Origin: a virus
Virus record (IMG/VR): IMGVR_UViG_3300042673_002246
Length of the DNA: 64,000 nt
Reading direction: 5' to 3' (one strand)
The position numbers and the translations under genes are program-made. Under the pieces are notes generated by a model, which was given only the letters and a program-made list of their open reading frames with translations, had not been told where the DNA came from and did no database searches. The stretch's first letter is position 1. Every line of letters begins with the position of its first letter. Below are positions 293-48,400 of the stretch, piece by piece.

Positions 293-554
293 CTTCCCCC
301 CAGTGTTGCTTGTCCAGCGTGGACATTAACTCATCGATTGCACGCCACAGCTCTGGCCAGTCTCTGCGGAGCTTGGCCATCATGCGCCTGTGTCGCCTCG
401 TATCATCGTCAATCCATGTGATTGCCATGCGAAATGCAAATACTTTATGCAATAGCTCATGGTATTTTTCCTCAAGGTCGTCATACGCGAACATCAGAAG
501 CTCATGTTCTGACTCAAACCCCTTGATTATGTTTTTCATTTTTTCTTTTTTCAT
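279..554 (-). CDS. Hypothetical phage protein
   Basis: 91-aa ORF with GAGGAGG RBS, same strand as neighbours. Confidence 0.65.
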   Translation of the reverse strand: MKKEKMKNIIKGFESEHELLMFAYDDLEEKYHELLHKVFAFRMAITWIDDDTRRHRRMMAKLRRDWPELWRAIDELMSTLDKQHWGEDGTN

Positions 555-566
555 TTTTCCTCCTCG

Positions 567-639
<73 letters not shown>

Positions 640-644
640 TTTGA

Positions 645-926
645 TTATAAATCTCTTGGCGGTATCGGTATTCCGCCTCCAGCCATTCTGAGGAATGTTT
701 TTTCGTCAATAACCTCAAACGACCATGCGTCTTGAGTGAATCCATTATTTATTTCGTGCGGTCTTCTGTCAATCAACGAAATCAGTCTGCACCTAGCGAT
801 ATTCCCGTCAATTTTAGTGTTTACGTACCATGTTTTTACTGGGTCTCTTGTTTGCCAAATAACATAAATGCAGTCATCGGTTTGGCCTGTTTTTGTTATT
901 TTTCCAATTGTCCCTTTTTGTGACAT
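645..926 (-). CDS. Hypothetical protein
   Basis: 93-aa ORF filling the gap in a minus-strand run. Confidence 0.55.
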   Translation of the reverse strand: MSQKGTIGKITKTGQTDDCIYVIWQTRDPVKTWYVNTKIDGNIARCRLISLIDRRPHEINNGFTQDAWSFEVIDEKTFLRMAGGGIPIPPRDL

Positions 927-5395: not shown

Positions 5396-8300
5396 TTATG
5401 AAGATTTTTTCTTAGTGTTTTTTATGGGCAATCGTGGCTGTCCTTCATCGCCTGACTCAAAAGCAAGTAGGGCCTTTCTGAACCGTTCAATTGTTTCCCT
5501 AGTAATTGTTTGGCCGCCATCGCCGCCGGTATCAATAAAGGCAGGACTCAGGTCATCTGCCCCAGACTCGAGCAACTCCCACAGAACGTTCAGGTTGGTT
5601 ACGGCTTTTTGGTTTTCCTGCCCACCCAAATCCCTGGCTCGCGGAAGGAATTGCGCTGTTGGGTAAATATCGGTTACATCAAGATAAAGAGTTCCGTCAT
5701 CCACCCATCCGCCGATAGCGACTCTTTCTGCTCCATCCGATGGGTTGTTGAATACTTCAGGTCCGTGAAAGTCCAGCCATGCAACGAATGTGTCAATAAG
5801 TTCTTCTGTTGGCTCTCCATCCGGAGTGAAGTCTGCAGAAGCTGGAAAAATCATTCCTTTTTTATTTCTTGCTACTGCTATACCATTTTTTATGTCGTCC
5901 ATTGTGTCTAGCTCGACAGTAAAACCGCCTTGGAATCCTTTTTGCAGAGTCTTTCTTGCCAGTAGGCGTTTCTCTGGGGTTTCAGCATATTTGACCTCAA
6001 CCTGTGATGCTATTTGCCGTATCTGCTCTGGAGAGTACTTAACTCTTTTTTTCTTCACAGTAGCTCCAGATGAAAGGCGTGGCGCACTGCTTGAATTTCG
6101 TTCCTGAGATTTTTCTGCCAGATTTCCCCACGGTTCTGTATTGCCGTCAACAAACAGTATTGAATAAACATCTTCACGCAGTTTTTTATTTAGCGCATAT
6201 GTCTTCAACTTATCATTTGGGTGAAGTATCGCAACTACTGCCTCAGCAAATGCTTCAGCTTTATTTGTATTACCGTAAGAAGAGAGCGTCATCGGACTAT
6301 CTGTAACCGAATTTATGTCAACCCCGTCAGAGAATCTGGCCATCATGTCAGGATTCATAATTACATCGTTATACTCGGACGCAACCTGCAGCGCTTGCGC
6401 GTAACGCTTATCCTGAGGGTCACCAGAACCAAAATAATGGCGATTTTTTGGCTTGCCAGCTAGTTCGACGTCTTTTAGTGCTCGGAAATGCAACCAATGT
6501 CCCCACTCATGGGTTATGACTCCAGCTATTGATTTGTCAATAGTGTTATCACGGCTCGTTACGAGTCTCGTCGGGTCCATGGTCACGTTTTCGCGTGCTG
6601 TGTCTAGCGAATTTGATTCCCTGTCGATAATCAGTCTTCGGTTAAAGGATACGGAATTAAGGAATGGAGTTGTCCTGGCGCGAACATATGGGTCTTTTGA
6701 ACCGATTCCGCGAACACTCTTTATTTGTTCAAGTTTTGACGAAACCTGAGGCAAGCTTTCATACGCCCTCGAAGCATCAGCTGTTTGCATGTAGAAAACG
6801 GGAGCACCGTGTGTCTCAAATGCCCACTTTAGTTTTGGATTTGATTCGACAGCTTGCTCAACAGCGTTACGCACAGCTTCAACTGCTTCGGGGGAGAAAT
6901 CTATATCATCCCATGGATTGTTTTTAAAATACTCGTCATGGACGGCGTTGAATTTTTTTACGTATTCTTCAGAGTCTCGTCCTCCTGGCGCAAAATCATC
7001 AATAAGCATTTCAAAGTATTGCTCTTTTGATGTTGGGACGAGCAATTCAGACATTTGTCTTGGAGTCATGCCCTTTAGCCAGTTCGACTTGCTTCTGCGA
7101 ACATTTCCGCCAAGTTCACTTTGGTCTCCGTATTTATATTTTTTCAATTGATGCGCTTTTATATCTGGCTGATTCATTTTGAGTATTGGACGCTCGCCTC
7201 CAGACGAAAGACGGTTAGAGGTTCGTCTATTTTTCCTGCCACCACGCGATAGGAGGCGATTAACCACAGTCCTTGGAGCTGACTGCTGGCTCTTGCGCTT
7301 GATGTCACGCTTCATTAAAATAGTGACGCCTTCTCCGGCTCTAAATAGCTCATCGGCTTCTTCAAAATCAACAAGCTGTTCTGCTGTTGCATTTGTTTTG
7401 AATTTTCCGTTTTTTGATTTTTCGTAGAGCGATGTTATTCTCTTCTTTTCTTCGTCCGTAAACCAGTTTCGTGATGAATCATTTACCGCATTATCTATTA
7501 CTTCTATAAATTTTTGCTGCTCGCCCTGCGACGCCCATGTAAAGCCATTTCTAGCCCAGTGTGTTGCGCCCATATAGTCGCCTTGTTTCCCAGACTGAGC
7601 GGAAGCCAATATTGTTTCTGCATCAATCTCTCTGTAAACAGCCTCGTTTCTGGCGTTGAAAATGCTCGCTATTCCATTGCCTCGAGCTGGGGCACCGACG
7701 GATAGTGAATCATGGACAATTATCTTATTTCTTCCATTGATTACAATTGTTCTGATTGAATCAGCAATTACCAGTTGGCCTTCGTTTTGCCCTTTTTCGA
7801 AGTCCTCCATATCTCCAATTCCGTCCCAACGTTCCCGCCGTGGAATTCCTGCTTGAGTAAGTCGTTTTACCGCGTCCTTGTCTTTTGTTTCAATGGTGAA
7901 TTTCAAGCTCACGCTTGTGGATGGCCGCTTTTTCACGCCTTCCATAATTCCATCGACCCCAAGGGCTTCACTTGCTTCTTCGAATTCTTCTTCGTCCATT
8001 TTCTGTACGACGACGTCTGTCGGTGAAACAACAACATCAAATGTTCTACCAAGATTTATTTTTTCTCCGTTTGTTGCCGTGACTATAACGTCGTTTCTTG
8101 TCGTTATTTCACCAGAAAACATATCTTTCGCTGCTGACTTTATTGATTCTTTGAGGGCTTTTCTTTCTTCGCTATCCGCGAGAACCTCTTCTTCGAATAC
8201 ATCGTATTCAATACCCTGAATTTTCTGAAATGAGGAATATCTTGGGTCATCTTTGGTAATCCACTCATCTTCTTTTTGGAGTTCGTCATTCAGCATCAGC

Positions 8301-11300
8301 GCAGAGAAACTCTCTACTCCTGCTCGCTGTTCGTTTGATAGGTAATTTTCCTCACTTACGACTGAATCGTAAATTTTACCTGAAGACAAACCGCGTATTT
8401 CATTAATTCTTTCCAACAAGCGATTATCTTCATTGATGTCATATTCTTCTGCAAGAATTTTACGAATTTTTCGTGCGTAGTTGTATCTCCTTCTAAATAA
8501 AGCACGAAGTTGTTTATCTTTTTCTTCATCACTTCTTCTAAGTGAGTTCGTACTAATATCCCGTATTGAGTCATATGCCAAAATAGGATTGTGAACTTCT
8601 ATTTCATAAGAATAAGTTGTACGCGTATTGCCATCTCTGTCTTTGACTTCTTTTTGTATATCCCTGAGTACGTATCCAAATTCTTTAATTGAATCATCAT
8701 CGCTAATCGCTTGAAATAAAATCCCACTGTCAGGTTTGAGTGAGGTCTCAATCCGCCCGCCATCATATTCAACTGCAGCTTTTGGAAGTTTGAATGTTTT
8801 TGGCTGAATTGCTCCGTCTTGCCCAGATGACAAGGAGTTGCGTTTATCTGGGTCATAACCCCACTCGAGCCATGAGTCACCGTTGGTGTAGATGTCTTTT
8901 GCTTTGACGCGTTTTTTGATTATTTCATAGTCCCCACGAAGAACTCCCTCACCGTGCTCAACTGCATACTGTCGTACGGGGGTCACCCAGTCACCTGGAT
9001 TTATTGATACAAGCTCAGATTCTTCCTGATTGCGTAGAGCATCTAGCTCAGATGCAAGTTTGTCGTAATAGTCGCTGTGATGGAGGTTTGTTGATACACC
9101 ACGAGGTACCCGACCATATTGGAGAATGTATTTCTGCTGTTTTTCGAGTCTTAGTATTTGCTCATCCCTCGATATCGGAACAGCCCTATACACGGTCACA
9201 TCGGCATTCGGTTTATTTCTGAAACGACGAACCACATCTACTGCGGCTGCGTCAAAACTGTCATTACCCGTTCCGTAGTAGCGGATACTTGAGGAGGAAT
9301 AAACATCATCTGGGTAAACACCAGTCAAATTGTGAAGTGGTGCTCCAGAATCTGCATCTGGGGCCATATGCATTCCTCTGTAGTCGCCATCATCTCCAGA
9401 TGAAAGACGGCGATACTCAGCGACATCTTGTTCGAATTTATCTACCGCTGCTGCAAATTTTGCATTATTTGAATTGAACTTTGCATCCCTTTTGTCTTTG
9501 TCCAAAACGTCAGTTGACCAACCATTAATGATGGCTCCATCGATAATCGCCGACATGACAAGACCGGTTGCTTCAGCATCTGCATCTGCCGTATGGTGTT
9601 TTTCACCTAAATCAACATTGAGGTATTTGGTTATGGCGGCAAGTCCATTGGACGGCTTCTTGTTCCCGTCTGCATCAAGAACGAATGGGCCGTCGTCTGT
9701 TTCTGGCGTCCAACGAGGAAGGGCCATATCTGAAATTTCTTTAGTGTCTAGGTAGCCCTTGGGTCTCCATGTAATGCCTGATTGAGATAGTGCCAGTTCG
9801 AGGACGTCTTTGTCAAATGATGCGTTTTGTACGCCGAATATTGCATCATCTCCAGCAAACTCGGCAAGTCGTTCATGTGCCTTTTTGATAGATGTTTGGG
9901 TTTTTAACCACTCATCTGTCAGCGGATTGCCATCTATGTCCTTGAGGTTCGCGCGAGACCATTCACCAAGAGATTCTTCTGGGTCCATGAAAATATTGAT
10001 GCTGTCAATTATTTTTCCGTCTTTCATCTTCACAGCACCAAACTGTGTTGGTTGGCCATTGGAAGAAGGTTTGCGGAATTCATCAAATACCAGACCAGTC
10101 GTCTCGTAATCAAAGAAAATTATTTCTCGATTTTTGTACTTGTCCTTAAATTCCTGCCATGTTTTAGCATCGCCAAATTCTTGCTCTGCTCCGCCAATAA
10201 AAGCACCGTATGTTGGTTTTCTAGGATAAGAAGGCCTGTCTGAGCCGCTAGACAAACGCTTTGAGTAGTCAATCGGTTCGTTTATGTCAGCTAGAAGCTC
10301 ATCAATGTCTACATATCCCCTTTCATCATGCATTTTGACAATTCTTGGAGTCATCGCAAACAATATGTCGTCATAATCAGTCTGGCTGAAACCCTGAGGC
10401 TTCGAGAGTCCGGCAATCGGCTTGTTTTTTCCTAGTACTTGCCACTCCCCACCAGGACCAAGGATGTCGGTAATGTCATGACCCCATTTTCCTACACCAA
10501 ACCATGATGTGCCTCTACGATGTCGTGCTGTTGCTAAATCCTGCAACCATAATGTGCGTATTTCCTTTATCATCGAGGAAAAGGCTTCAGTTGGATATCT
10601 GTCGAGATATCCAGAATATTTTGTAGCAGCTTGATACAGACCAGAGTGAGTAGACATAAAGTTCTTGTCATCACCAAGTGCAGCCAATACCGACTGCATC
10701 TCTGATGCTGCTTTTTCTTCGACTCCTAGATTTAACTCGACCTCACTGATAATCCCGTCAAGATTAAATGCATTGCCTTTTCTGGCATTTATGTCAGATA
10801 TTCTCAGGCTGTCACCAACTTCCCAGCCTTTTGTAAATTTATCGTCAGAAGCAAATGCCACGTACGGACTACCAATGATGTTCGCAATAGCTCTAACTTC
10901 GTCTTGATTCTCAATTACTGAAGACTCATCATTTGCGCGAAGCTTTTGCAATAATGAGCGATATGCTTTGACTTTGACTGACGTTGAAGCAAAATCACGG
11001 CGTAAATTTCGTGACTGTGTCTCATTTAGCTCGCGTGTATTACCTAGTATCTGTCCAGAGCCAATTCCTCCACCTTTTGTGCGTTCAGGTATGAATATTC
11101 CATCATCTAGTTCTGCTACTCCATGATGAATAAAGTACGCGTTAGTTGGTGTTGGTGAAATAAAAAGGTTATCTTGTTCTTGCTGACTCAGAGACCTTAT
11201 CGAATCAGCTTCGCTTTTAAGAACTGCAATTTTTTCTTTTGGTATTTCTTCAACATCTAGAACATTTTGTTCATCTCGTATTTTTTTGCGATTTTCTTCA

Positions 11301-12013
11301 AATTCTTGAATTCGTAGGCTTTCTTCAGCAAGATAAAGTTTTTCTTTTGCTTCCGTAACCCTACTTGACAGGGCTTTTTTAATTTCGCTTTCCCGTTGCG
11401 CAGGGTCGTTAATGTTTCTACTATCGAGGTCTTGCTCGATGAGTGCTACGTGTTCTTCACGTGTTTGATTTGCTGGATTTATTCCAGGTTTATCAATATC
11501 GATGGTGTCGACTGGCTCGTTGCTTCTTGAATTACCGCTAAGAACGACACCGTTATCTTTTCCTGTCCAATTCCCGGACCGCTCTAATTCGGCAATTGCA
11601 GCCCTTAGCCCTTCAACTCTTTTACGAGCCACAGCAACTCTTTCTTCTACTGGGCTGGTTTGTTCTGTTGTGTTTGCCTGCCCAGAAGAGAGTCGCACGG
11701 CTTGTCGAACCGCCTGGGTTTCATCGTTTGTGCCTATAAACCTTGGACGCGTTGTGCCCTCATCGACCCACCCGTCTGCATCCGGGTCGAAATTACTGCC
11801 GGTTGGTTTTCTGCTTCCTGGCACCCCTCCTGTTGGAACATCAATGTCTCCACGACGACGCCTACGTCCGCCTCCAACATTTGGCCTATCAATAAGACGA
11901 CTGCCCACATACGAGGCAAGGCGACGACCAATGGCCTTGGTTTCCTGCTCTAGCTCTCTACCTTTTCGGGAAAGCTCAAACGGAATCTCAAATTCCTCAT
12001 CTGCGTTAGACAT
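5396..12013 (-). CDS. Giant polyvalent protein A (2205 aa): leader, unknown module, DEDDh exonuclease, ART-like, unknown, GNAT, zincin and C-terminal module, separated by 7 LSSG linkers
   Basis: Long ORF; FFDYETTG...QNASFD...HTADAD (DEDDh); VYRAVP...INPGDWVT...EWG; RGNGIAS...WARNGF (GNAT); HEWGH...EAFAE (zincin). Confidence 0.85.
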   Translation of the reverse strand: MSNADEEFEIPFELSRKGRELEQETKAIGRRLASYVGSRLIDRPNVGGGRRRRRGDIDVPTGGVPGSRKPTGSNFDPDADGWVDEGTTRPRFIGTNDETQAVRQAVRLSSGQANTTEQTSPVEERVAVARKRVEGLRAAIAELERSGNWTGKDNGVVLSGNSRSNEPVDTIDIDKPGINPANQTREEHVALIEQDLDSRNINDPAQRESEIKKALSSRVTEAKEKLYLAEESLRIQEFEENRKKIRDEQNVLDVEEIPKEKIAVLKSEADSIRSLSQQEQDNLFISPTPTNAYFIHHGVAELDDGIFIPERTKGGGIGSGQILGNTRELNETQSRNLRRDFASTSVKVKAYRSLLQKLRANDESSVIENQDEVRAIANIIGSPYVAFASDDKFTKGWEVGDSLRISDINARKGNAFNLDGIISEVELNLGVEEKAASEMQSVLAALGDDKNFMSTHSGLYQAATKYSGYLDRYPTEAFSSMIKEIRTLWLQDLATARHRRGTSWFGVGKWGHDITDILGPGGEWQVLGKNKPIAGLSKPQGFSQTDYDDILFAMTPRIVKMHDERGYVDIDELLADINEPIDYSKRLSSGSDRPSYPRKPTYGAFIGGAEQEFGDAKTWQEFKDKYKNREIIFFDYETTGLVFDEFRKPSSNGQPTQFGAVKMKDGKIIDSINIFMDPEESLGEWSRANLKDIDGNPLTDEWLKTQTSIKKAHERLAEFAGDDAIFGVQNASFDKDVLELALSQSGITWRPKGYLDTKEISDMALPRWTPETDDGPFVLDADGNKKPSNGLAAITKYLNVDLGEKHHTADADAEATGLVMSAIIDGAIINGWSTDVLDKDKRDAKFNSNNAKFAAAVDKFEQDVAEYRRLSSGDDGDYRGMHMAPDADSGAPLHNLTGVYPDDVYSSSSIRYYGTGNDSFDAAAVDVVRRFRNKPNADVTVYRAVPISRDEQILRLEKQQKYILQYGRVPRGVSTNLHHSDYYDKLASELDALRNQEESELVSINPGDWVTPVRQYAVEHGEGVLRGDYEIIKKRVKAKDIYTNGDSWLEWGYDPDKRNSLSSGQDGAIQPKTFKLPKAAVEYDGGRIETSLKPDSGILFQAISDDDSIKEFGYVLRDIQKEVKDRDGNTRTTYSYEIEVHNPILAYDSIRDISTNSLRRSDEEKDKQLRALFRRRYNYARKIRKILAEEYDINEDNRLLERINEIRGLSSGKIYDSVVSEENYLSNEQRAGVESFSALMLNDELQKEDEWITKDDPRYSSFQKIQGIEYDVFEEEVLADSEERKALKESIKSAAKDMFSGEITTRNDVIVTATNGEKINLGRTFDVVVSPTDVVVQKMDEEEFEEASEALGVDGIMEGVKKRPSTSVSLKFTIETKDKDAVKRLTQAGIPRRERWDGIGDMEDFEKGQNEGQLVIADSIRTIVINGRNKIIVHDSLSVGAPARGNGIASIFNARNEAVYREIDAETILASAQSGKQGDYMGATHWARNGFTWASQGEQQKFIEVIDNAVNDSSRNWFTDEEKKRITSLYEKSKNGKFKTNATAEQLVDFEEADELFRAGEGVTILMKRDIKRKSQQSAPRTVVNRLLSRGGRKNRRTSNRLSSGGERPILKMNQPDIKAHQLKKYKYGDQSELGGNVRRSKSNWLKGMTPRQMSELLVPTSKEQYFEMLIDDFAPGGRDSEEYVKKFNAVHDEYFKNNPWDDIDFSPEAVEAVRNAVEQAVESNPKLKWAFETHGAPVFYMQTADASRAYESLPQVSSKLEQIKSVRGIGSKDPYVRARTTPFLNSVSFNRRLIIDRESNSLDTARENVTMDPTRLVTSRDNTIDKSIAGVITHEWGHWLHFRALKDVELAGKPKNRHYFGSGDPQDKRYAQALQVASEYNDVIMNPDMMARFSDGVDINSVTDSPMTLSSYGNTNKAEAFAEAVVAILHPNDKLKTYALNKKLREDVYSILFVDGNTEPWGNLAEKSQERNSSSAPRLSSGATVKKKRVKYSPEQIRQIASQVEVKYAETPEKRLLARKTLQKGFQGGFTVELDTMDDIKNGIAVARNKKGMIFPASADFTPDGEPTEELIDTFVAWLDFHGPEVFNNPSDGAERVAIGGWVDDGTLYLDVTDIYPTAQFLPRARDLGGQENQKAVTNLNVLWELLESGADDLSPAFIDTGGDGGQTITRETIERFRKALLAFESGDEGQPRLPIKNTKKKSS
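9410..10243 (-). other. DnaQ-like DEDDh 3'-5' exonuclease module within protein A
   Basis: Exo I DYETTG, Exo II NASFD, Exo III HTADAD, bounded on both sides by RLSSG. Confidence 0.85.
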
Positions 12014-12074
12014 CTACAAAATGATACCACTTACATAAAACTCAATAAAAATGAATTTACGTGGTGTTAAGACT

Positions 12075-19093: not shown

Positions 19094-19170
19094 GCGTTGG
19101 TAGCTCAATCGGATAGAGCAACAGACTTCTAATCTGTAGGTTGTAGGTTCGAGTCCTACCCGACGCGCCA
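19094..19170 (+). tRNA. tRNA-Arg(TCT)
   Basis: Cloverleaf, loop CTTCTAA, encoded CCA. Confidence 0.95.
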
Positions 19171-19185
19171 TCAAACACATCAATC

Positions 19186-19884
19186 ATGGAGGCTGCAATG
19201 GAAGTGAAAGAAAGAAAAATTGATGAGTTTGGGTTTGTGCGTCTAGACGCACATATGGCCGACGATATGTCGGTTGTCAATGCAGCACGTGTATCTTTTG
19301 CACGACACCAAGAGGAGCTTGATGAAGCAGCAAAAGGATTGATAAATTTCTTAATGCGCGAAAGACATGGCACTCCTTTTGAGCACAATGCATTTAGATT
19401 CCATATTAAGTGTCCAATATTTGTTGCTAGGGAATGGTTTAGGCACAGAATAGGTTCATTTAATGAATTTTCAGCTCGATACAGTATGGTCAACGATGAG
19501 TTTTTCGTTCCTGCAGAGCACGATGTGAGAACTCAGGTTGGAAAACCGGGCGCATACCACTTTGACCCCGTTGAAAAAGATGTCGCCGATAGAACTATTG
19601 AAAGAATTAAAAATATAAACGAAATGGCGTACGGCACCTACAAGGAATTGATTAATGACGGCGTTGCAAAAGAGCTTGCACGAACAGTTTTGCCAATGGG
19701 AATGTACACACAGTTTTATTGGACGGTAAATGCTCGCTCGTTAATGAATTTTTTATCTCTTCGTCTAGACAAGTCTGCACAGGTGGACATTCGCCGATAT
19801 GCAACATGTGTTGAAATTGTTTTGGCTCAAACTATGCCTGTCACGTATAAGGCATGGGTTGAAAATGGAATGGTATGTCCATAG
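19186..19884 (+). CDS. thyX: Flavin-dependent thymidylate synthase
   Basis: VVNAARVS, HGTPFEH, REWFRHRIGSFNEFSARY signature. Confidence 0.97.
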   Translation: MEAAMEVKERKIDEFGFVRLDAHMADDMSVVNAARVSFARHQEELDEAAKGLINFLMRERHGTPFEHNAFRFHIKCPIFVAREWFRHRIGSFNEFSARYSMVNDEFFVPAEHDVRTQVGKPGAYHFDPVEKDVADRTIERIKNINEMAYGTYKELINDGVAKELARTVLPMGMYTQFYWTVNARSLMNFLSLRLDKSAQVDIRRYATCVEIVLAQTMPVTYKAWVENGMVCP

Positions 19885-19916
19885 TTGATTGAAGGTGTAA
19901 AAATTAACCATATTTT

Positions 19917-19992
19917 TGGCGAGTAGCTCAGTTGGCAGAGCAAGGGACTGTTAATCCCTGGGTCGTAGGTTCGAGCCCTACCTCGCCAGCCA
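19917..19992 (+). tRNA. tRNA-Asn(GTT)
   Basis: Cloverleaf, loop CTGTTAA, encoded CCA. Confidence 0.95.
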
Positions 19993-20055
19993 TTATGTGG
20001 ATTATTTAATTGTTTCCGATAGGGTACATCTAAACCACAAATTTAAAGGAAAATC

Positions 20056-20832
20056 ATGAGAAACATGAAGAAGATAGTTGTAGTTGCCGCCCTTTTGTTT
20101 GCAACGCTCGGCTCTAGTGAGGCAACCGCTCAAGATTGCGGCGAATACACAGAAGCTCCATCATCATTGGCCCCCTCAATGATTACGATTATTGATACAG
20201 AAGTTGGAACCGATGCATATCAACGATTGGTTGCTTACAGTAATGGTGGGCACAAGGCTCTGGGAATGGCGATTGCTGGTTTCTATAACTACCTTGATAA
20301 GTGCCAGTACGTAGGCATTGGCATCGGAGACGGAAGTGGTGGTAATGGCTTTCGCCCGAATTACACACTAGCTATTTGGTACGAAGGTATTGATTTGTCC
20401 GTGGCTCGTTCTGCTATTTACTCCCTTATTGGAGCCAGCGCGAATCCAGTTGTGAGTAATGGTGATTGCAATATCTCATGTGACGGAACGACTGGTCGTC
20501 AGTTTGATGGCACCATTGCTACTTCCACCACTACGACGAACATTCCCGAGACGACCACCACTACGACGACAATTATTCCGCAAGTTATTGTGCCCGTTGC
20601 TCCTCCAAGGCCAGCAGAAGAATTAGATGTTGCTCCAGTTGAAGTACCAACAGTCCCAAGTGAAGCACCAGTAATCGTTGAAACAACGACAACCACCTCC
20701 CTTGCTTCCATGCAAGTAATTGAGTCTGTTTCATTGAGTGTTGCTACTGCAAACAAGGAAGTTGCCAGCAATAAGAAGACTTTGCCCCCTAAGAAGAAGG
20801 CAAAGAAGGTGGTTGTTCAGCGCCGAAAATAA
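20056..20832 (+). CDS. Secreted protein with Thr/Pro-rich stalk and basic tail
   Basis: Signal peptide ending ATA-Q, poly-Thr tracts, KKAKK C-terminus. Confidence 0.7.
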   Translation: MRNMKKIVVVAALLFATLGSSEATAQDCGEYTEAPSSLAPSMITIIDTEVGTDAYQRLVAYSNGGHKALGMAIAGFYNYLDKCQYVGIGIGDGSGGNGFRPNYTLAIWYEGIDLSVARSAIYSLIGASANPVVSNGDCNISCDGTTGRQFDGTIATSTTTTNIPETTTTTTTIIPQVIVPVAPPRPAEELDVAPVEVPTVPSEAPVIVETTTTTSLASMQVIESVSLSVATANKEVASNKKTLPPKKKAKKVVVQRRK

Positions 20833-20842
20833 CATAGGCGTC

Positions 20843-20932
20843 GGAGCGGTGGCAGAGAGGCTTATTGCACCTGTCTTGAAAACAGGAGTCCGTTTGCGCG
20901 GACCGGGGGTTCAAATCCCTCCCGCTCCTCCA
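20843..20932 (+). tRNA. tRNA-Ser(TGA)
   Basis: Cloverleaf with long variable arm, loop CTTGAAA, encoded CCA. Confidence 0.93.
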
Positions 20933-20938
20933 TATCCA

Positions 20939-21011
20939 GTCTGGGTAGCCCAATGGCAGAGGCACGGCGCTTAGGACGCCGCCAGTGAGAGTTCGAGTCT
21001 CTCTCCAGACA
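20939..21011 (+). tRNA. tRNA-Leu(TAG), short variable loop
   Basis: GTCTGGG/TCCAGAC acceptor, CGGCG-CTTAGGA-CGCCG anticodon arm, GAGAG-TTCGAGT-CTCTC T-arm. Confidence 0.85.
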
Positions 21012-21028
21012 CTATATTTTTAAGGGCT

Positions 21029-21100
21029 GCCCTTGTAGCTCAGTGGTAGAGCACCTCACTTGTAATGAGGTGGCCGTGGGTTCGACTCCCACCGAGGGCT
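21029..21100 (+). tRNA. tRNA-Thr(TGT)
   Basis: Cloverleaf, loop CTTGTAA. Confidence 0.93.
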
Positions 21101-21123
21101 CTACTTTTTGCTAGGTTCTATTT

Positions 21124-25634: not shown

Positions 25635-27050
25635 CTACTTGCTGTTCTTTGGATTTAGGCGATTCATTATCGCATCTTGGCCCGGAAACTTGGGACCCAT
25701 AACGCGTCCTGTTTCTGGCTTCTTTTCTACTCGCGGACCTGGTGCGATTGTTGGTGGCTGTGGCCTATCAGCTCCTGGTCTTTTTGATGAAGGAGTTCCA
25801 GGATTTGGTTTTTGTCCTGGTGGGTACTTCTTTCCAGGACTCGGAATACGGTCTGCTGGCTTGCTTGGTTGAGGCCTACTTGGGCTTGGGTATCTGTCGG
25901 CTGGCTTGGTGTCTTTTGGCTCCGGTTTTTGCCCAGGAGGATACTTTTTCCCTGGACTTGGATATCTGTCGGCAGGCTTCTGGTCCCTTGGTTTGGATGG
26001 TGACGGCTTTTGCCCTGGTGGGTATTTCTTTGGCGGGTCTGGATACCTATCTGCAGGCTTCTGGTCACGTGGTTTTGAAGGAGATGGCTTCTGTCCCGGA
26101 GGTGATGATGGTCCCTTTGGAAGACCGTCAGCAGATGGCTTACCATCTGCCCCTCTTAGAACCTTGTCGAAAGCTGCTCTAGCTCTTGCACGAGCATCTC
26201 TTTCTTCCTTGCTTCTATCCTCAACACGTCGATTCATTTTTATTCCCTGAAGCTTTAGCTGCTGACGAACAAATTTTCTTCTCTGCGCTTCATAGTTCGC
26301 ATCGCTTGAGCGTTGATATGGTTTTCTTTGCTCTTGTGGAGTGCCATCGAAAATCATTCCATCGCTGTCGTGGTCTACGGCTTCCGCTGGATTTGTTCCG
26401 GTAGGAGCAGCGCCGCCAGCGCGTTGGCCAATTGACATTCCAAGAGCGGCTTTGTACTCATAATCTTCAAGTTCATCTGACTTCTTCTTTGAGTTTTGGT
26501 AACGCTCAAGAAGTCTTTTCCCTTTTGCAGCAAGCGCTGCTGCATCTTCCATATTTTTGGGAACTGGTTCCCCCCATGCTGCAGCAGAAAGAGCAAGTCT
26601 TGTTGCTCTTCCTTTTTCGTCTTTCATTGGTCCACGTGGGTTGGTGAAAAATCTAGTAAGGAATGAACCCTTGCGACGCATTTTTTCCGGTGTATCAGCT
26701 GGGCCTCTTACTCCTGGCTTTAGATTTGCGCCTTCTGTTCTCTTGAAGAACGCTCTACCAGCAGCTGTCAAACCACCCTTTGGGTCTTTGAGTGGTTTTT
26801 TCCCGCCCTTTGTTTTTATGTATTCAGGAATTGCCGAGATTTGTTCCTCGGATGGGAATTCGAATTGACCGACACGATTAGAACCGTAATACTCATCGAA
26901 TATCGGCATGAAATCTTCTGATTTAAGTTCGATTAGCGTTTCATCAATTAGCTGCTCGAGCTCATCTTGTTCTTGGATATTGTTCGCTATTTGCTCTAAT
27001 TCGGCAAAAAGCTCTTCATCGCTTTTGATTTGTGACATCGCATCTTCCAT
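25635..27050 (-). CDS. Head-region protein with conserved basic domain, DxDxDG motif and Pro/Lys-rich repeats
   Basis: PKGGLTAAGR...RRKGSFLTRF...ALSAAAW; DHDSDGMIFDGT; repeats. Confidence 0.75.
   Translation of the reverse strand: MEDAMSQIKSDEELFAELEQIANNIQEQDELEQLIDETLIELKSEDFMPIFDEYYGSNRVGQFEFPSEEQISAIPEYIKTKGGKKPLKDPKGGLTAAGRAFFKRTEGANLKPGVRGPADTPEKMRRKGSFLTRFFTNPRGPMKDEKGRATRLALSAAAWGEPVPKNMEDAAALAAKGKRLLERYQNSKKKSDELEDYEYKAALGMSIGQRAGGAAPTGTNPAEAVDHDSDGMIFDGTPQEQRKPYQRSSDANYEAQRRKFVRQQLKLQGIKMNRRVEDRSKEERDARARARAAFDKVLRGADGKPSADGLPKGPSSPPGQKPSPSKPRDQKPADRYPDPPKKYPPGQKPSPSKPRDQKPADRYPSPGKKYPPGQKPEPKDTKPADRYPSPSRPQPSKPADRIPSPGKKYPPGQKPNPGTPSSKRPGADRPQPPTIAPGPRVEKKPETGRVMGPKFPGQDAIMNRLNPKNSK
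25790..26105 (-). repeat. Imperfect tandem coding repeat (KKYPPGQKP...KPADRYP) x about 4
   Basis: Visible in the translation and as ~80-nt DNA repeats; boundaries approximate. Confidence 0.85.
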
Positions 27051-27167: not shown

Positions 27168-28517
27168 TCAGCTTGGCTCGTTGTCGAAGTCAACTTTGAC
27201 GAATGCTTCTGGACGCTTGACAGCAAGGGCGAGTCTCTGCTCGGCCAAGATGACGATTGCGTTGCGCACGAAGAAGTCTGAGTGCTGTTCCGAAATTCGG
27301 ATTGAAGCCTCTTCTCTGTCGTACAGCTGAGCACCGGTACCGAATGCACCGACCAGGGCTGTTCCCTCAGCGATTGCCGGGGTGTCAACGACTGGCATTC
27401 TCCAAACGCGTGGCTCGCCACCCATTGCCACTGACACAGCGACCAAGTACTGGCCGTTTGTATCCTTGGTCAATTCGATGTCTTCCCAGTCGTTCGGGTG
27501 CAACACGATGCCGGATGGCTCGTAGTAAGCAAGGAACGAGAGGGTTGCGGCACGACGAATTGCATCAGCCTTTGTGTCTGGAACTGGTGTGTCTGCACCG
27601 TCTGACCATGCGTACTCCTGAATGTTTGGAGTCTGAAGAACACCAAGAAGGTTTTCGCCAGTTCCATCGCCATTCAAAATCTGCGAGTCTTCTAGGAGAC
27701 GCAGACCGTACATGAGTTCGTTGTCGATGATTGAACGTAGCTGTGGCTCATCGGCGAGGACGTTGCGGTGTGCAGCTTCCCAGTGTGCCAATGTGCGAAC
27801 AGGAGCCTGCTCACCAACGAATGCGAACGATGACTGCGGCTTGATACCGAAGTTGCCACCAGAACGCTCAGCAACTGAAGATGCCGAGTTAACACCATGG
27901 CCAGCCTGAAGGGTTGTGAAACCGAGCTGACGGAAGTATTCGATTACTGCTGCAGATGTTCTGCGAACTGGGAACAGGTCGCGAACACGCTTTGTACGCA
28001 TTGGAGGAAGAACCATGGCATCGCGCTGAACGTTTCCGAAGCTGCCGAGGCGGCTGTCTGTAACTAGCGTTGTTGGCAATGCTGAGTAAACGTCCTTTAC
28101 GTTGTAAGCGGTCAATGAAGCAGCGACTTGCCATGGTGCAACCATGTTTGCGCCGTTACGGCCACCATTGAGTGTCTTGAACTCAGGTGACTCGATAAAC
28201 ATTTGACCGATTGACTTGATTTCGCGTGAGCTCAATTGACTGAGGTCTGCAGCTGCTGCAGCATAGCTTGAAGCTACTGCTTCTCCCTGTGGCTGTGATG
28301 ACCATGAGTCAACATCGCCCATTGTCTGAAGGTCAGCGAGCAGTGACTTAATTGACTTAATGTCCTGCATGTTCTTGTCGAATGCTGACTTCTGCTCAGA
28401 AGAAACAACTACTGTGCCTTCCTCGATTTTGAATGAGTCCGCAATGGCTTTATTGTCTGCCATTTTGGTGCGAAGAGCTGACTGCAGCTCTTCAATTCTT
28501 GCTTTGTCTTGTGACAT
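27168..28517 (-). CDS. HK97-fold major capsid protein with ~101-aa delta domain
   Basis: RVRDLFP, VRTLAHW, QILNGDGTGENLLG, IVLHPNDW, FVRNAIVILAEQRLALAVKRPEAFV. Confidence 0.96.
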   Translation of the reverse strand: MSQDKARIEELQSALRTKMADNKAIADSFKIEEGTVVVSSEQKSAFDKNMQDIKSIKSLLADLQTMGDVDSWSSQPQGEAVASSYAAAAADLSQLSSREIKSIGQMFIESPEFKTLNGGRNGANMVAPWQVAASLTAYNVKDVYSALPTTLVTDSRLGSFGNVQRDAMVLPPMRTKRVRDLFPVRRTSAAVIEYFRQLGFTTLQAGHGVNSASSVAERSGGNFGIKPQSSFAFVGEQAPVRTLAHWEAAHRNVLADEPQLRSIIDNELMYGLRLLEDSQILNGDGTGENLLGVLQTPNIQEYAWSDGADTPVPDTKADAIRRAATLSFLAYYEPSGIVLHPNDWEDIELTKDTNGQYLVAVSVAMGGEPRVWRMPVVDTPAIAEGTALVGAFGTGAQLYDREEASIRISEQHSDFFVRNAIVILAEQRLALAVKRPEAFVKVDFDNEPS

Positions 28518-28675: not shown

Positions 28676-29416
28676 TTATTTTTGACTGAGTTCCTCAGAA
28701 ATTGCGTGCTTTTTCTTTAGGTTGCTCTTGCCACCGGAACGAAAAACAGTACGAACGGCGTTCATTATTTCTCGGCTTCTGGTTCTCTCCGCATTTCTTC
28801 TTCCCAGCGAAGTTGAGCCGGTTCTATTTGCGTAATCGGTCATATTTGTGCAAGGCATCCAAACTGTTCTTCCGTTTTTGCTAACTCTCCTGCTTACGCC
28901 AATGCAACCGATTTGCCTAGCTCTTGACCGAGCTGAGTCTGGGTCCATGAACACATCTGTGTCATCTTCCCTTACGTATTGAGGGCCCTGAAGAGCTTTG
29001 CCGCTTACCGGGACACAGTTTGGGACCATGCTCCCATTTTTCCCAGGTTTCATTCCAACCTGTTTGTATCCAGGCCAACATGGACTGGATTCCGCTTTTC
29101 CAGCAAAATTCCCAGACACCAATCCACCGCCGTCGATTGTTTCTATTCCTCGAATCGGCATCTCGTTCAAGTTTTCCCAATTATCTATTCTTCGTTTTTT
29201 CTTTTTCTTTCCAGTGCTTCTTCCGGCAGCTTTTCTTTCTCCGGCAACAACGGTTCTCCATTTACTTGTTTCAGCAATATCTGATAGACGCTCAAGCTCA
29301 CCCATTGATGCACATGGCATCCAGTTGCCATCTTTATCCTTGTGCGCCCCAAAGCAACCCATTTCACGCGCAATTGCAAGTGCGTCAAGCTTCTTGACCA
29401 AGTCTGGTTTTTTCAT
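28676..29416 (-). CDS. Cys-motif head-region protein
   Basis: Two copies of AR.[MI]GC.G...WMPC plus CWPGYKQVGMK...VPNCVP. Confidence 0.7.
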   Translation of the reverse strand: MKKPDLVKKLDALAIAREMGCFGAHKDKDGNWMPCASMGELERLSDIAETSKWRTVVAGERKAAGRSTGKKKKKRRIDNWENLNEMPIRGIETIDGGGLVSGNFAGKAESSPCWPGYKQVGMKPGKNGSMVPNCVPVSGKALQGPQYVREDDTDVFMDPDSARSRARQIGCIGVSRRVSKNGRTVWMPCTNMTDYANRTGSTSLGRRNAERTRSREIMNAVRTVFRSGGKSNLKKKHAISEELSQK

Positions 29417-42489: not shown

Positions 42490-45400
42490 CTATTCTTTTG
42501 TTCCTGATTTGCCGAACATGGTTCGACCTTCTTCTTGAAGTCTCTTACGTGCGTTTTCTAATTGCTCTTTACTGAAAATGTCCTCAATTGTGTGGCTTGT
42601 GCCAAATATTTCATTGAAACGATTGACCACATCCTGAAGCTCGTTGGATGAGTATCTTGGCTCATCACCCTTAATCTTGCTGAAAGTCTTGCCGCGTGTT
42701 TTTGCTGCATTGTTTAGAAGAACGGAAAGATTGCTCGTACCAAGGATGTATTCCTTATTTCTCTTGGTGTTTCCACCAGAACCCTTCTGGGTGTTTGATA
42801 TGAACTCAACCATCGCCTCGGCAACATTTGCCTTGCTTGCGCGAAGTTCACCGTCAAGCTTTTGACCATTTTCTGGCCAAACGCTTTCCGCATTCTCAAT
42901 CATCCCTGTCCGAATCATCTCCTGGATTGCTGCAACTGGCACTCCGTCACTTTCCCATGACTTCCTGTCTTTCGGATTGGTCAAACCGACATCATCCATC
43001 CCGAATGACCGCTTCATTCTTTCTCTTAGCTGAGCCATCCATTCGTCTCTGTCAAGACCAAGATTTTCGATGAGATTATCCAACTTGAAATCTCTTCTTG
43101 ATGTCTTTGCGCCAGCTGGGTTTGTTTCATTGACCGTCGGTGCTGGTGCTTCTGGAACAAAGTCTGGCATTCCCTCGTAAATAAGGTCAGCCTCGGCAGA
43201 AGCTTCGCCATCAGCGTCTTCTGGGTTTGGCGTAAATCTTCCAGTTGCCCTAAATTTTGCCACTGGGTCGACTTCTCCAAGAGTGGAGTATTCATCTGAA
43301 GAAATGATTTGATTTTCTTCCCTGTCGGCCCAGAACGGATATGCGTCTTTCCCAAATGTTTCAATGATGAATCTGTCGCGCATATTGGCTCTACCGAGAT
43401 TTTCGGCAAAACGTTGAGCTGACGACATCTTCTCCACGCCCGGCTCGTCTGAAGTTACTGGCGAGAACAATCTCCATCCACCAAATTCAGGTCTATTGCC
43501 GAGTTCTGCAACGAGGAATCTGACGGCATTGTGGGATATTCCAGAATCATCATCAGAAATCCTCTTTGCATCCTCTGGCGATAAATTTAGCAATCTTGAA
43601 AGGTCGGTGTTGGAAATTGGTTCCGACTTGGTCCACTTTACATCAGCAATTGTGTTGTCTGGATTTCTGACAACATCAAACTCAGTTGGAATTCTGATTG
43701 ATTCCTTCAGGCTCTTTACTGGAAGCATCCATGTATCTGCATCTGGATTCGAAAGATTTTCATTCCCAGATACGCGACCGATAGTTACTTGTGGTCGACG
43801 CTTCATTGCGGCGGCAGCCTTATCCAGGCCCTCATTTATCTGTCGTCTGCGCTCTTTTACTGTTCCGGACTTACTTGACGTATCTAGCGTTATTCCGCGT
43901 TTTCTAAAACCATCCCAGAATCTTCTGGCAAACGCGAATGACTCTCCAGTCTTTGAGCCTCTAATTGCAGCAAGATTTGTAGCATTGATATTGTCCGCAT
44001 AAGTGGACCCGCTACTCATTCTTCGTGCTTTTCTGTCAGCGCGATTTGAACTGTTTACTGAACGTGGCCCACCAACTGCTGCTGTCCGTTCTGGCGCTTG
44101 GACTCCTGGCGTTTCTGGTGCTGAGGTTTCTGTAGTGGCCTGTCGCTCAACATCTCCGCCACGAAGTCTTGCTCGTCTTGCCGACCTGTTGGTCCCAGTT
44201 CCTGGAACTGCTGTTTCAGGTACGCTATTTACGCGACCGCTTGAAAGTATCTCTCTTGCGCCATCAGGGAATACTTGCTCACCATCTCCAAATGGGTTCC
44301 AAAATCCAGAAGGAGCCTGCTGCTCCTCGGTTAGGAACTTTTCAATATATTCAAAACCCTTTGGATTTTTCTTTGGGTCGATAATCCATGACGTTGCCTC
44401 AGACAACTGAATGCGCTTTTTTGCGCGAGTCATCATGACGTAAATAAGGTTTTCCATTTCACGACTTATGTCATTCCCTGGAAGTATCGAACCATCGTCT
44501 TCAAACTTTGGCTGGAAGAAATCGTCTCCGGCAACCACGTTGTCGAATTCCAAACCTTTGGCTGCGTGTGTTGTTAAGAACGATGCATCAACTTCTGGCT
44601 CGTTTGCTGAGTCAGTTATCATTCTTCCAACAAGGCTGAGGAGCAATCCAGTCTCTTCTGGATTATCTCCCTTTATTCTTACAGCGTCATATGCTGGTGC
44701 ATTCGATGAGCCAGCCTTACGTGGTACGTACTGCTTTTCTATTGTGACTTTTCCTTCCAGATTGAGGTCTTTAATCATTTTCTCAATCCGGCGTCGCATC
44801 ATAGGCTTTTCGCCGTTCTTGTCACCTGTGTACTGAATTTTTCCTGCTGCGTCCCTGAACTGGTAGACATCAATTATTCCTTCACCGGAAATAATTACTC
44901 CATTCTCCCATTTCCCATCTGCACCAAGACTTTCGGTATCCAGTTTCCAGAAAACTTCTCTGCTTGGTGTCTGGCCGGTTGGGTTCGGGATGATGTTAAA
45001 TCGCTTATCACGATTCATCTTGTACGCACCCTTGGCTCCACCGCCGCCTTTACCTGCTTTTTGTTTTCCGAGAGCAATTAGTTCCTCACCAGAAACCGTC
45101 GAAGAACTTCCATCTATATTCTTGAATGGGTCAACATCGAGTGGTTCTTCTATTTCTCGTATTCTTGCTCTAGTTAAGACCTCGCCAGTTTGTGGGTCCC
45201 TTCGACCTAGCAATCTGTTTAGCCAGTCAAGTGGGGAAAGTTGATTTCCTTCTGCGTCTCGAACCTGCAAAAGCTTGAGCATTGAACCCAGTTGACCATA
45301 GGATGATTTTTGACCTGCGCGTTTTCTGATTTCCTCCATTGTCCACGCATTGCCAATAATCTTTGATTCGCGTGGTCGTGTCCCAACAGGACGGAGGACA

Positions 45401-48400
45401 AACTGATAGTGGCGTAGGAATTCAACCATGTCTCTGTATTTTTCGGCAGGCAATCCAACGATTTTGTCTGGATGCGCTCCGATGAATTCCAAGGCAGCTG
45501 TAAGGGTGTTTTTGTTTGAATAAGAAATATATGCCCACGTACCATCTGCGCTTGTTGGTATCTGACGGTAGAGGATTCCTTCCGATTCTGGAACGATGTA
45601 ACCACGAGCCTTGTCCAGTAGCTCATTTCTCTCTTTTTCTGGCATATCTGCCAGTGACTGTCCGTCTGGACCAGAAATTCCGTATTTCTTTTGTATTGAA
45701 TCAAGTTTCTTACGCAAATCATTTCCGGTGAGTGTTCCAAGATTGAAGTCATGAGAAACCACATCCTGAAGTCGGCCAAACAACTTGTAGTCCGCAGAAA
45801 CCTCATCAATCCCATTCTGCCTGTCGGTCATGTTTCCACGACCAAGCATCAAGTTTCCAAGGAACGCAACTGTCTTTCCGTATCTGAATGAGTCAGTCAA
45901 CGTCAAGTTGAAATCTGGATTGAGTCGAGCGAATGAGTCAGATGAACCACGGAATCCATAAATTGATTGCCGTGGGTCACCGACCATGACTATTGCAAGA
46001 TTATTATTCGCAATATTGTCTTCAATCACCTTTTGGAGAACTGGGTTTACGTCCTGAGCTTCGTCAAAGAAGAAAGTCGAAATGGGCTTATCTTCCGTTG
46101 CATATCGGCGACGCAATCCGGCGCGTGCTCCACCACCTGTGTAGACATAATCCACACCATCAACTTGGACTATTGAGCCTGGGTCAAGTTTTTTGTCCTG
46201 TGCTCTTGCATCTTTCACTTTTCTTGTGCCGTGACCAACCATTCCAGCGTCTGTACGCAGATTTGGTTTTTGCATAGCCCAAATCTTTACTTGCTGGTCG
46301 TAGTTGGGCAGCACATTGCTCTTCGGGTCGAGCGTGTCAGACCACATTTTGAGTGCTAGGTCAACCCACTCTTGTGGTATCTGGTCGAATGCTGTTTCGG
46401 CAGGGTCGATTGGGTCGCCAGACTCGGCAAGTTGCTTATTTCTTTCAATTTCGTGTGGACGAAGCTTGAAATGTTTTTCACTAAGCGCATCATCATCACT
46501 CTGTGAATAACGAGTAAGGGCGTTGATGAGAACAAGACCATAATCGTCAGCAGTCAGCTCCACCCCTTCGTGGGTAAGTCCGTCTGGGTATTTCGTGCCG
46601 AAATCGTAGTGTCTCGCTACGTCGCGACCACCGCTTTCTGTTTCAAACGAAACGTATCCCAAAGTTCTGAATCCAGCTTTTTTCAATCCTGTTGTATCGA
46701 CAGTTTTTCCACCATATCCCTCTGCAGACGTTTGTCTTGTTGATTTAGGGTTTGCTGATGAGTAGTACTCGTTGCCGGCGCCAATGCCTATCTTTTTTAG
46801 TTTCTCTTTGAACTCTGGAGAAATTCCTGGCCTGTCTTCGAGCAATAGGGACCAGTATGCCAATTGGTTAATCGAAGAGCTTCCTGTGTTGTCAGGCATT
46901 CTACGTGCTGCTTCTGCAGCATTTTTCTTATTGAATGTTATGTAATAAAACTGTGACTCCGGAGATTCCTTGGCCATACGAATAACAGATTGTTCAACTG
47001 TGGTGGTTTTACCTGCTCCGGCTCCTGCGCGAACAGCAGCCAATCCACCTTCACCAGTTTTTGTGAAGTGTGCAACTGTGTCCATAACGTCTTTTTGTTC
47101 ATCAGTCGGCTCAAACTTCATTCCAAACATTTCCATGAACGAACCCTCAGTTCGCTCAATCTTGCGCTTAGGGTCCTTGGCGCCAACAATTGGTCCGCGG
47201 CCAGAAGAAAGACGCTTGTTAATTTGGTTATACGTGTTGCCTTCTTCGTCCTTGATAACGAATCCGGTTATGCCGCTTGAAAGACGATTATTCTCGTAGT
47301 CCTCAAGGATAGTTTTTACTGCAGATGGACCTTGTCCACGAACACGCACGCGTTGACGTACTTTGTTTTCTGGTGTTGGTGTGCCGACAACTGGCTTTTT
47401 CTTTGGAATTGGGATAGTGATTCGACCAACGATTGGCGCTTCAATTGTGTAGTCTTCTTTACCCTTGCGTTCGCTGTCTGGAACACCAGCGCGCTTGCGC
47501 AGCGTTGCTGACTTATTCATAATGTAGTCAACAGCCTGCTGTCCGCCTTCAATTGCACGACGGATTGAGCTTGGGTCGTCCTGCAGTGCTTTGCGCCAGA
47601 ACGCTAGGTACTGAATATGGTCTTCGCGTATTTGAGGCTCTACACCGAGGAATCCCATCGCAAATGAAGCACCGATTTCTGCGATGAGTTCTTCAAATGC
47701 GTATTTCTTTCTCTGTTCTGGGGTGCCCTTCATTCTGCCGCTTAGGTCCCTCTTTAGTCGCGATGGATGGGCTGTCCAGTGAATAATTTCATGCAGAACT
47801 GTTCCATAGAAAGCAATTGGTTCAATAAAGTTCTCAAATGGAGGAACATTTATCGTGTCGTCGTTTGGGTCGTAGAATGCGCTGACTCCCTGTTCCTTGT
47901 ATCTAGGACCAATTTCTTTGATTACATTTTCAATGTCTTCAAGTCGTTGTGCCGCATCAAGTTTTTCTGTTTCTTTGACTTCGTAGACCCATGCTGGCAG
48001 TCCGTCCATTTGGTCGGCGTTGAATACTGTTTCAATTTTGAAACCCTTTTCACCAGTACGAATTCCGTCATCATTTTTTATGTCAAACGGAACGAGGATA
48101 TTGACACCAAGTTCTCCTGGTTTTGGTTTTGCTTTCTTATTCAACTCACGCCACTGCGAACGTCCAGCCCAACGATTTGTTTTGTATTTGCGCTTTGATG
48201 CGACCTGGGAAAGAATCAATTGATTCATGCCTTGATAAATACGATTTCTTCTTGTTGGATTTCGACCGTACAACTCTGGCGAGCGCCAAGGCACTTGCCA
48301 CTGGCCAGCTTTGCTTGGGTCCTTTAATATCTCATCAAGCGCAGCAATAATTGCTTCACCCATTTGCTGGTACATGTCTTTAATACGAGCTGCATCTGCT

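Follow-up and report, generated by a model that had tools for sequence, protein, structure and literature searches.

Two giant predicted proteins, termed A and C, are encoded 38 kb apart in a 64,000-nucleotide stretch of viral DNA (hereafter the window), which is part of the 133,891-base IMG/VR virus record IMGVR_UViG_3300042673_002246. These proteins share a leader segment of about 70 residues. The leader constitutes a protein module that is well defined and unannotated. Both the module and the way it is arranged are new; the kind of system is known. We tentatively propose, at slightly less than an even chance, that the leader serves as a header, delimited by cleavage sites, by which cargo polyproteins are coupled to the interior of the procapsid. 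It would act in the manner of the capsid-targeting signals of T4 and of P1 DarB (PMC9024508), but as a new sequence family.

Two diverged copies of one leader

Protein A is a polyprotein of 2205 amino acids encoded on the minus strand (5396..12013). It carries the leader near its N terminus, has seven L-S-S-G sites, and contains an RNase_T-type exonuclease domain (PF00929) at residues 632-816. Protein C is a polyprotein of 2954 amino acids, also encoded on the minus strand (42490..51354), whose gene lies directly after the portal gene and which has eight x-SSG sites. The domains of C are ordered as a predicted S78 prohead protease (residues 31-174; 50833..51264, minus strand; PF04586, E 2.3e-9), the leader (541-611), and three conflict-type domains, namely ArdC-N (992-1108; PF08401, E 1.2e-12), an MPTase-PolyVal zincin (1140-1267; PF18818, E 2.2e-33) and a UvrD-type helicase.

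Comparison of A with C by BLASTP yielded a single strong match, between residues 22-102 of A and 537-619 of C (57 identities in 83 positions, or 69%; E 3e-25), and all remaining segments gave E values above 0.04. The leader copy in A spans K26-G94 (11732..11938, minus strand), and that in C spans K541-G611 (49522-49734; together with the E539-K541 junction, E-S-K, 49522..49740, minus strand). An original prediction made from the DNA letters had described a near-identical leader of about 70 residues in the two proteins. The shared segment and its exact coordinates were borne out, but the term near-identical overstates the resemblance: in the leader core 58 of 71 aligned residues (~80%) are the same, and the DNA identity is 58%.

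The many synonymous changes that had been noticed between the two copies are indeed present. In an 89-codon alignment of the leaders, 41 of the 61 identical residues are specified by different codons, and the proportion of differing sites is 0.91 for synonymous and 0.16 for non-synonymous positions. Saturation of the synonymous sites while the residues are kept points to an old duplication held under strong purifying selection on the peptide, and it excludes a recent DNA copy or an assembly artefact.

Several short parts follow one another in the leader. The E-x-K↓[A/S]-[I/L]-G junction (the arrow marks the predicted cut) is followed by a basic stretch ending in D-R-P and by an Arg-rich run. 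The second part begins with P-T-G-G-x-P-G-x-R-x-P-T-G-S and continues with a D-x-D-x-D-G-W-x-D-E-G-T loop that ends in P-x-[F/W]-[V/I]-G, which in the A copy reads P-R-F-I-G. An alignment of 34 sequences has thirteen invariant columns (K26, P44, G63, G66, D76, D78, D80, G81, W82, E85, G86, P90 and G94) and ten more that are near-invariant. The segment has a net charge of +5 and a pI of 11, and its first 32 residues have a net charge of +6.

The loop had been taken for an EF-hand-like calcium-binding loop. Its D-x-D-x-D-G pattern and hydrophobic position 8 fit this proposal, but position 12 is Thr rather than Glu and no EF-hand Pfam match was obtained at E <= 1, so that the calcium-loop idea is a matter of pattern only. 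The likeness extends to the MopE-type calcium loops of PF11617, which have the same pattern along with hydrophobic and acidic residues. Unlike EF-hand and MopE-type loops, however, the leader loop is single rather than paired or repeated, has Thr at position 12, and has no Pfam match.

Structure prediction was carried out with AlphaFold2 (AF2). Residues 1-125 of A gave a predicted local distance difference test score (pLDDT) of 59, with the basic stretch at residues 25-40 drawn as a helix of low confidence, and a Foldseek comparison of this model with the PDB found no match at E <= 0.001. Residues 1-640 of C, modelled from a 10-sequence alignment, reached a mean pLDDT of 45, and the model contained nothing usable on docking between leader and protease. 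When the leader (A 20-100) and the full-length capsid protein were predicted as a complex, the score was 0.00 and no verdict resulted; this prediction is counted neither for nor against binding.

The basic character of the segment, with its Arg run and with predicted cleavage sites on both sides, could also describe a DNA-condensing peptide. Cuts at E-x-K and at the first x-SSG would free a basic peptide of 80 residues that stays in the head and neutralises the charge of the DNA, and a 471-residue protein encoded near the capsid gene is likewise basic, with Pro/Lys-rich repeats. This explanation seems to us very unlikely. Conservation in the leader is position-specific (Pro, Gly, Asp, Trp and P-T-G-G), not merely compositional, and a peptide whose copy number is tied to huge cargo proteins would contribute little charge. 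Moreover, the co-variation of the non-basic half within genomes, described below, would be left unexplained.

Distribution, borders and cargo

A leader profile was built from 12 sequences of the window and related viral contigs and compared with 1.84 billion representative proteins. This gave 45 matches, 38 of them below 1e-10, and about 40 true family members, nearly all of which are giant phage proteins (600-6526 amino acids); short members may be contig-end fragments. About 35 protein clusters have an acidic prefix of 23-26 residues, conserved as (E/D)-F-x-I-P-F-E-E-S-R-R-G ... E-x-K, and behind it the leader, at residues ~22-100. In about six clusters it is internal, at residues ~540-625, behind an N-terminal S78 prohead protease. 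The profile survey proposed in the original prediction finds its carriers among giant phage proteins, with the leader either N-terminal or behind a prohead protease, as one would expect of a header for trafficking or packaging. The leftover weak matches, which were the sole ones outside the leader family, are PF11617 metal-binding repeat proteins aligned to the D-x-D-x-D-G part alone.

Other searches returned little. Neither leader copy matched Pfam at E <= 1, residues 1-600 of A had no match in PHROGs, tblastn with residues 1-115 of A found none among 50,697 cultured-phage records, and an ESM Atlas feature search with the leader produced no usable match. A word-based search for short leader-bearing proteins gave three matches and was uninformative on an ancestral C-terminal tail. 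One profile match within the window (517-705; E 0.009) was dismissed as chance; its open reading frame overlies the tRNA-Met gene at 566-639.

In both A and C the leader lies after E-x-K and before the first SSG, as originally described. The upstream junction is E24-T-K26 in A and E539-S-K541 in C, and among 34 junctions P1 is always Lys and P3 is Glu in 27. The same motif is found in the HK97-type major capsid protein of the window (27168-28517, minus strand; PF05065, E 2.5e-41), where E99-I-K101↓S-I-G104 (28206..28223, minus strand) closes a scaffold-like N-terminal domain of 101 residues. The sequence R-E-[IV]-K-[ST]-[IL]-G at capsid residue 101 is kept in most of 81 capsid proteins of the clade, and the corresponding junction in Brevibacterium phage Cantare is E-A-K-S-L-G. 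The protease of HK97 cuts after Lys103. The HK97 scaffold domain comprises 103 residues (PMC10275583), which matches the position of the capsid junction in the window.

The strict junction motif occurs seven times in all six frames of the window; A, C, the capsid protein and a further two proteins of the head operon account for six of the occurrences. Because the motif that precedes the leader also ends the capsid scaffold domain and clusters in A, C and head-operon genes, E-x-K is probably the site of the S78 prohead protease. The N terminus of C can be assigned to this enzyme family both by profile and by similarity to an annotated protease: it matches phrog_80 (head maturation protease) with an E value of 6e-27 and is 42% identical over 163 amino acids to the protease of phage Cantare. 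The region of C at residues 180-640 has no similarity to the C-terminal half of the Cantare protease.

The segment that precedes the junction in A (M1-K26; 11936..12013, minus strand) is acidic, with a net charge of -4, and has E-T-K at its end. Conceivably it is this A-type prefix that acts as the real capsid-targeting propeptide, in which case the leader would be a substrate-recognition or processing exosite that presents E-x-K, and perhaps x-SSG, to proteases. The prefix is conserved, N-terminal, 23-26 residues long and ends at a predicted cleavage site, a layout that it has in common with the T4 signal (PMC9024508). The start of the leader also coincides with P1', and in divergent genomes its opening residues are better conserved than the rest. 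We nevertheless judge this division of roles to be distinctly unlikely. C-type proteins have no such prefix, and the capsid protein and other E-x-K head proteins have no leader, so E-x-K cleavage needs none. Protein B, a product of the head operon, has LSSG sites and no leader, and a role on the P' side would not explain the invariant Trp, Asp and Gly residues in the C-terminal half.

The downstream border is formed by x-SSG. In A this is the first L-S-S-G (L108-G111; 11681..11692, minus strand) and in C the first x-SSG (F624-S-S-G; 49474..49485, minus strand), and in 37 of 40 proteins [LFMIV]-[ST]-S-G occurs 0-50 residues (median 15) past the leader. LSSG is over-represented about 100-fold, since A has seven copies and C has six against ~0.07 expected from composition. 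The capsid protein of the window has no SSG at all, which argues that x-SSG is probably cut by something other than the scaffold-removing event, possibly by the embedded zincins.

Cargo was analysed by splitting 40 family proteins at x-SSG and clustering the resulting 290 segments. The leader segment comes first in all 40 proteins, and the families of cargo cassettes occur at ordinal positions 2-13; cargo with Pfam matches includes an exonuclease and a GNAT acetyltransferase. The description of the leader as portable is thus well founded at the protein level: it is a conserved unit bounded by E-x-K and x-SSG in about 40 clusters, ahead of cargo cassettes that vary in order.

Genomes that carry both leader types exhibit lineage-specific residues common to the two copies, with the signal in the C-terminal half. 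In one genome 35 of 35 residues of this half are identical between the copies, with 17 identical codons, and in another the figures are 33 of 35 and 19; in genome G001, both copies carry a C-terminal half that is quite different. Across five genomes the true pairing of A-type and C-type leaders outscores all other 119 permutations, and in four of the five the best C-type match of the A-type leader lies in its own genome. Such a preference is not expected under independent divergence, and the copies therefore appear to have been kept alike, either by a common partner or by old conversion events followed by selection. The co-variation is compatible with both copies having to suit one partner.

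Conversion alone can give concerted evolution, and the leader is mostly predicted to be disordered. Both points would suit a leader that has no function of its own and is simply a conserved spacer, inherited with the polyprotein scaffold and kept alike between copies by occasional gene conversion. This reading is extremely improbable in our view. Between 80 and 100% of the residues are kept despite saturated synonymous sites, the position of the leader is fixed in 40 of 40 proteins while everything downstream shuffles, and the 34 aligned sequences retain the thirteen invariant and ten near-invariant columns listed above.

Loading, ejection and origin of the leader

In the scheme that we tentatively favour, the leader (70-85 residues) would serve a family of polyvalent-type giant phage polyproteins as the constant header in front of their cargo. 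During head assembly this header would dock the polyprotein to a lineage-specific partner inside the procapsid, for which the capsid scaffold domain, an acidic 540-residue neighbour of C, and the portal are candidates. The docking surfaces would be the basic helix with the Arg run and, in addition, the small P-T-G-G / D-x-D-x-D-G-W loop. The S78 prohead protease would cut E-x-K↓A-I-G, the motif that also ends the capsid scaffold domain, and this cut would take the acidic prefix off A and, in C, part the protease-containing portion from the cargo. The cassettes behind the first x-SSG (exonuclease, ArdC/zincin, helicase and others) would stay in the head and be delivered with the DNA. Docking, cleavage, location in the virion and delivery are the steps of this scheme that we infer. 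The packaging role put forward in the original prediction is a reasonable proposal and fits the architecture of the family.

Alternatively, the leader might be an ejection or pilot header that is not needed for loading. As the mature N terminus of the cargo after the E-x-K cut, it would position the cargo at the portal or on the DNA, to leave first or with the genome. The products of A and C would begin with the same residues after the predicted cleavage, the header would stay on the cargo until the first x-SSG is cut, and retention of the leader in the protease-fused C would be explained. A precedent is SPP1 gp7, which binds the portal and is delivered with the DNA. This MuF-family protein is described as a structural head component of phages with portal-terminase packaging, and embedded zincins are proposed to release domains (PMC5512222). 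If the prohead protease cuts x-SSG, however, the leader would be detached before ejection, and Pfam recognises no portal or DNA-binding domain in it. The ejection header makes the same predictions as the packaging role on distribution and co-variation, and we consider it rather unlikely.

A 471-residue protein encoded just after the capsid gene (25635-27050, minus strand), with DUF6321 at residues 88-159, had been noted as carrying the D-x-D-x-D-G core as well. The core is present at residues 226-237 (26340-26375), as part of a mini-leader-like element, E198-Y-K200↓A-A-L-G ... D226-H-D-S-D-G-M-I-F-D-G-T237 (26340..26459, minus strand), but its relatedness to the leader is weak. With the leader profile the protein scored E 2.1 among 786 open reading frames of the window, which is not significant, and with divergent leader variants from related genomes it was the third-best match in the window, at E ~6e-4 without composition correction. 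Its tail consists of basic Pro/Lys-rich repeats of the S-P-x-K kind, and residues 201-471 have a net charge of +28.

In the protease protein of a related genome (G004), residues ~524-565 comprise a junction (E-Q-K↓A-I-A-R), followed by a basic stretch and by a loop (D-G-D-G-D-G-F). DUF6321 precedes this element and a Pro-rich region follows it, the same architecture as in the 471-residue protein. When longer homologues of residues 60-260 of the latter were collected, about 100 of the best 120 were fused to Peptidase_S78, and 31 of those best 120 have a K↓A junction, a basic stretch and a D-x-D-x-D-G element. This link between the leader and S78-DUF6321 tails is suggestive. Elements of this kind are part of the protease and head-assembly proteins of the clade. 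In some of the homologues the fusion partner is a ferritin (PF00210) or a sigma-70 region 4 domain.

A more elaborate form of the loading proposal would make the leader a docking module that began as the tail of a prohead protease and was later copied to unlinked genes. Together with the x-SSG joints it would constitute a plug-in delivery system, in which any cassette placed behind the leader is loaded and injected. The module would co-evolve with one lineage-specific receptor, and the D-x-D-x-D-G-W loop would be a metal-dependent latch. We hold this full set of claims to be rather doubtful.

Several observations weigh against a loading header. The gene for A shares its strand with that for C but lies outside the head operon: 38 kb separate it from C, and the capsid gene is ~15 kb upstream of it. 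Protein C is already fused to the protease, so that a packaging tag there looks redundant, and by analogy with T4 the A-type acidic prefix, being removable at E-x-K, is an equally good candidate signal. Protein B (2458 amino acids; 33331-40707, minus strand; no Pfam match) is encoded in the head operon, with C on one side and the capsid gene on the other; it contains three LSSG sites, yet it is without a leader. In two complete genomes that belong to this capsid clade, the profile detects no leader; their protease proteins are just 831-871 amino acids long, and G004, the one that was scanned, has no LSSG-rich giants. The leader profile reached a best E value of 0.005 against 120 S78-DUF6321 proteins, so homology is not established and the resemblance is one of pattern and position alone. 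In genome G002 a classic A-type leader is accompanied by a divergent C-terminal half of the C-type copy, a counter-example in a small sample. Finally, the AF2 model of A 1-125 reaches a pLDDT of ~80 for residues ~61-95 alone.

Head genes, known systems and implications

The head genes of the window further include a portal protein (51461-53527, minus strand; PF04860, E 1e-51) and the large terminase (53798-55111, plus strand). Also encoded are a ribonucleotide reductase, a primase-helicase and seven tRNAs (Met, Val, Arg, Asn, Ser, Leu and Thr; within 566-639, 1331-1403 and 19094-21101). The capsid protein is at most 49% identical to those of cultured phages, of which Brevibacterium phage Cantare and Gordonia phages are closest. 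It has more than 2600 relatives in metagenomes, many of them on contigs of 134-170 kb. The Phage_Mu_F profile (MuF) had no Pfam match in A, B, C or the portal protein at E <= 0.01.

Directly after C lies the gene for the 540-residue protein (40725-42347, minus strand), which has 154 Asp and Glu residues, a net charge of -96, and E-x-K↓S motifs behind an acidic run. Its possible roles are those of a scaffold-like core protein or of a partner for basic leaders; as an acidic neighbour of C it is an attractive candidate partner for the basic header. Upstream of the capsid gene, a 246-residue protein (28676-29416, minus strand) has a DUF3721-like Cys motif, C-W-x-G-Y-K-Q-V-G-M-K ... P-N-C-V-P, which in G004 is part of the protease protein (residues ~185-215). 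Domains of the head operon are thus split and fused differently among relatives.

Some additional features of C and A were observed. Protease-fused proteins begin with a conserved F-E-Y-K↓[S/T] (residues 5-9 of C; 51328-51342, minus strand), in which F6, Y8 and K9 are invariant or near-invariant among 10 sequences; the Cantare protease starts with Q-Y-K↓G. This pattern suggests that the S78 protease may also trim its own N terminus. A helix-turn-helix-like cassette of C (residues 887-934; 48553-48696, minus strand) is 52% identical to residues 654-701 of the 871-residue protease protein of G004, and several related protease proteins have Sigma70_r4 Pfam domains; a sigma-like factor carried in the head is possible. 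Upstream of A (12014-12040, minus strand), an extended -10-like box, T-G-G-T-A-T-C-A-T, ends 7 nucleotides before the ATG and would give a leaderless transcript from A's own promoter. In related A-type genes a stop codon stands immediately 5′ of the ATG. No common promoter motif was seen in the regions upstream of A, C, the capsid gene and other genes, and the 9-mer core of an early-region motif has zero copies in the window.

The T4 protease gp21 has L/I-x-E as its site, in contrast to the S78 protease with E-x-K considered here. There is no sequence similarity between the leader and the T4 capsid targeting sequence. The latter, of ~10 residues, precedes the cut and is removed, whereas the leader has 70 residues and lies downstream of the predicted cut. 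It would consequently stay on the product, and the A-type prefix alone would be removed by the prohead protease. In HK97, a segment downstream of the S78-type domain of the maturation protease gp4 takes the enzyme and fused reporters into proheads. The leader and its look-alikes are similarly located downstream of S78 domains, a comparison by position only. Unlike the gp4 tail, with which it shares no sequence similarity, the leader is internal, is followed by cargo, and is also found on protease-less genes. T4 internal proteins (IPIII), which travel in the head and are delivered to the host (PMC9024508), have a short, portable, N-terminal targeting element that is associated with a prohead-protease site and stands ahead of unrelated cargo. 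The leader resembles it in layout, with a predicted protease site at its border and with unrelated cargo behind it, and is N-terminal in about 35 clusters and internal in about six.

The antirestriction protein DarB of P1 is a multi-enzyme protein of 250 kDa whose first 30 residues suffice for encapsidation, and no common signal was found by the authors among the P1 Dar proteins (PMC9024508). A and C resemble DarB in their giant size and multiple enzymes, and they have a constant header, either at the N terminus or behind the protease. Unlike the DarB signal, to which it has no sequence relation, the leader recurs in two or three proteins of a single phage and in about 40 clusters. Polyvalent proteins, as described by Iyer et al. 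(2017; PMC5512222), combine header domains (MuF, ArdC-N) with many conflict domains that are proposed to be released by embedded peptidases. Protein C agrees with that account in having ArdC-N, an MPTase-PolyVal zincin and a helicase in one chain, beside late genes. Differences are that neither A nor C has MuF and that the header is an unannotated basic element of 70 residues. No mention of an S78 prohead-protease fusion or of regular x-SSG punctuation turned up in the parts of PMC5512222 covered here.

The concept of a leader that loads cargo extends those of capsid-targeting signals and polyvalent proteins and founds no new class. Should the leader prove to be a header for loading or delivery, it would define the way in which uncultured phages of a large clade, at 134-170 kb, stock their heads with enzymes in megadalton amounts (exonuclease, antirestriction ArdC/zincin, helicase, acetyltransferase and many unknown cassettes). 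Such a header would likewise provide a sequence rule for finding virion-delivered effectors that are encoded far from the head genes. A tag of 70 residues with defined cut sites, present in several proteins of a single phage, makes the question directly testable, and the same features make the leader a possible tool for packaging foreign proteins in capsids.

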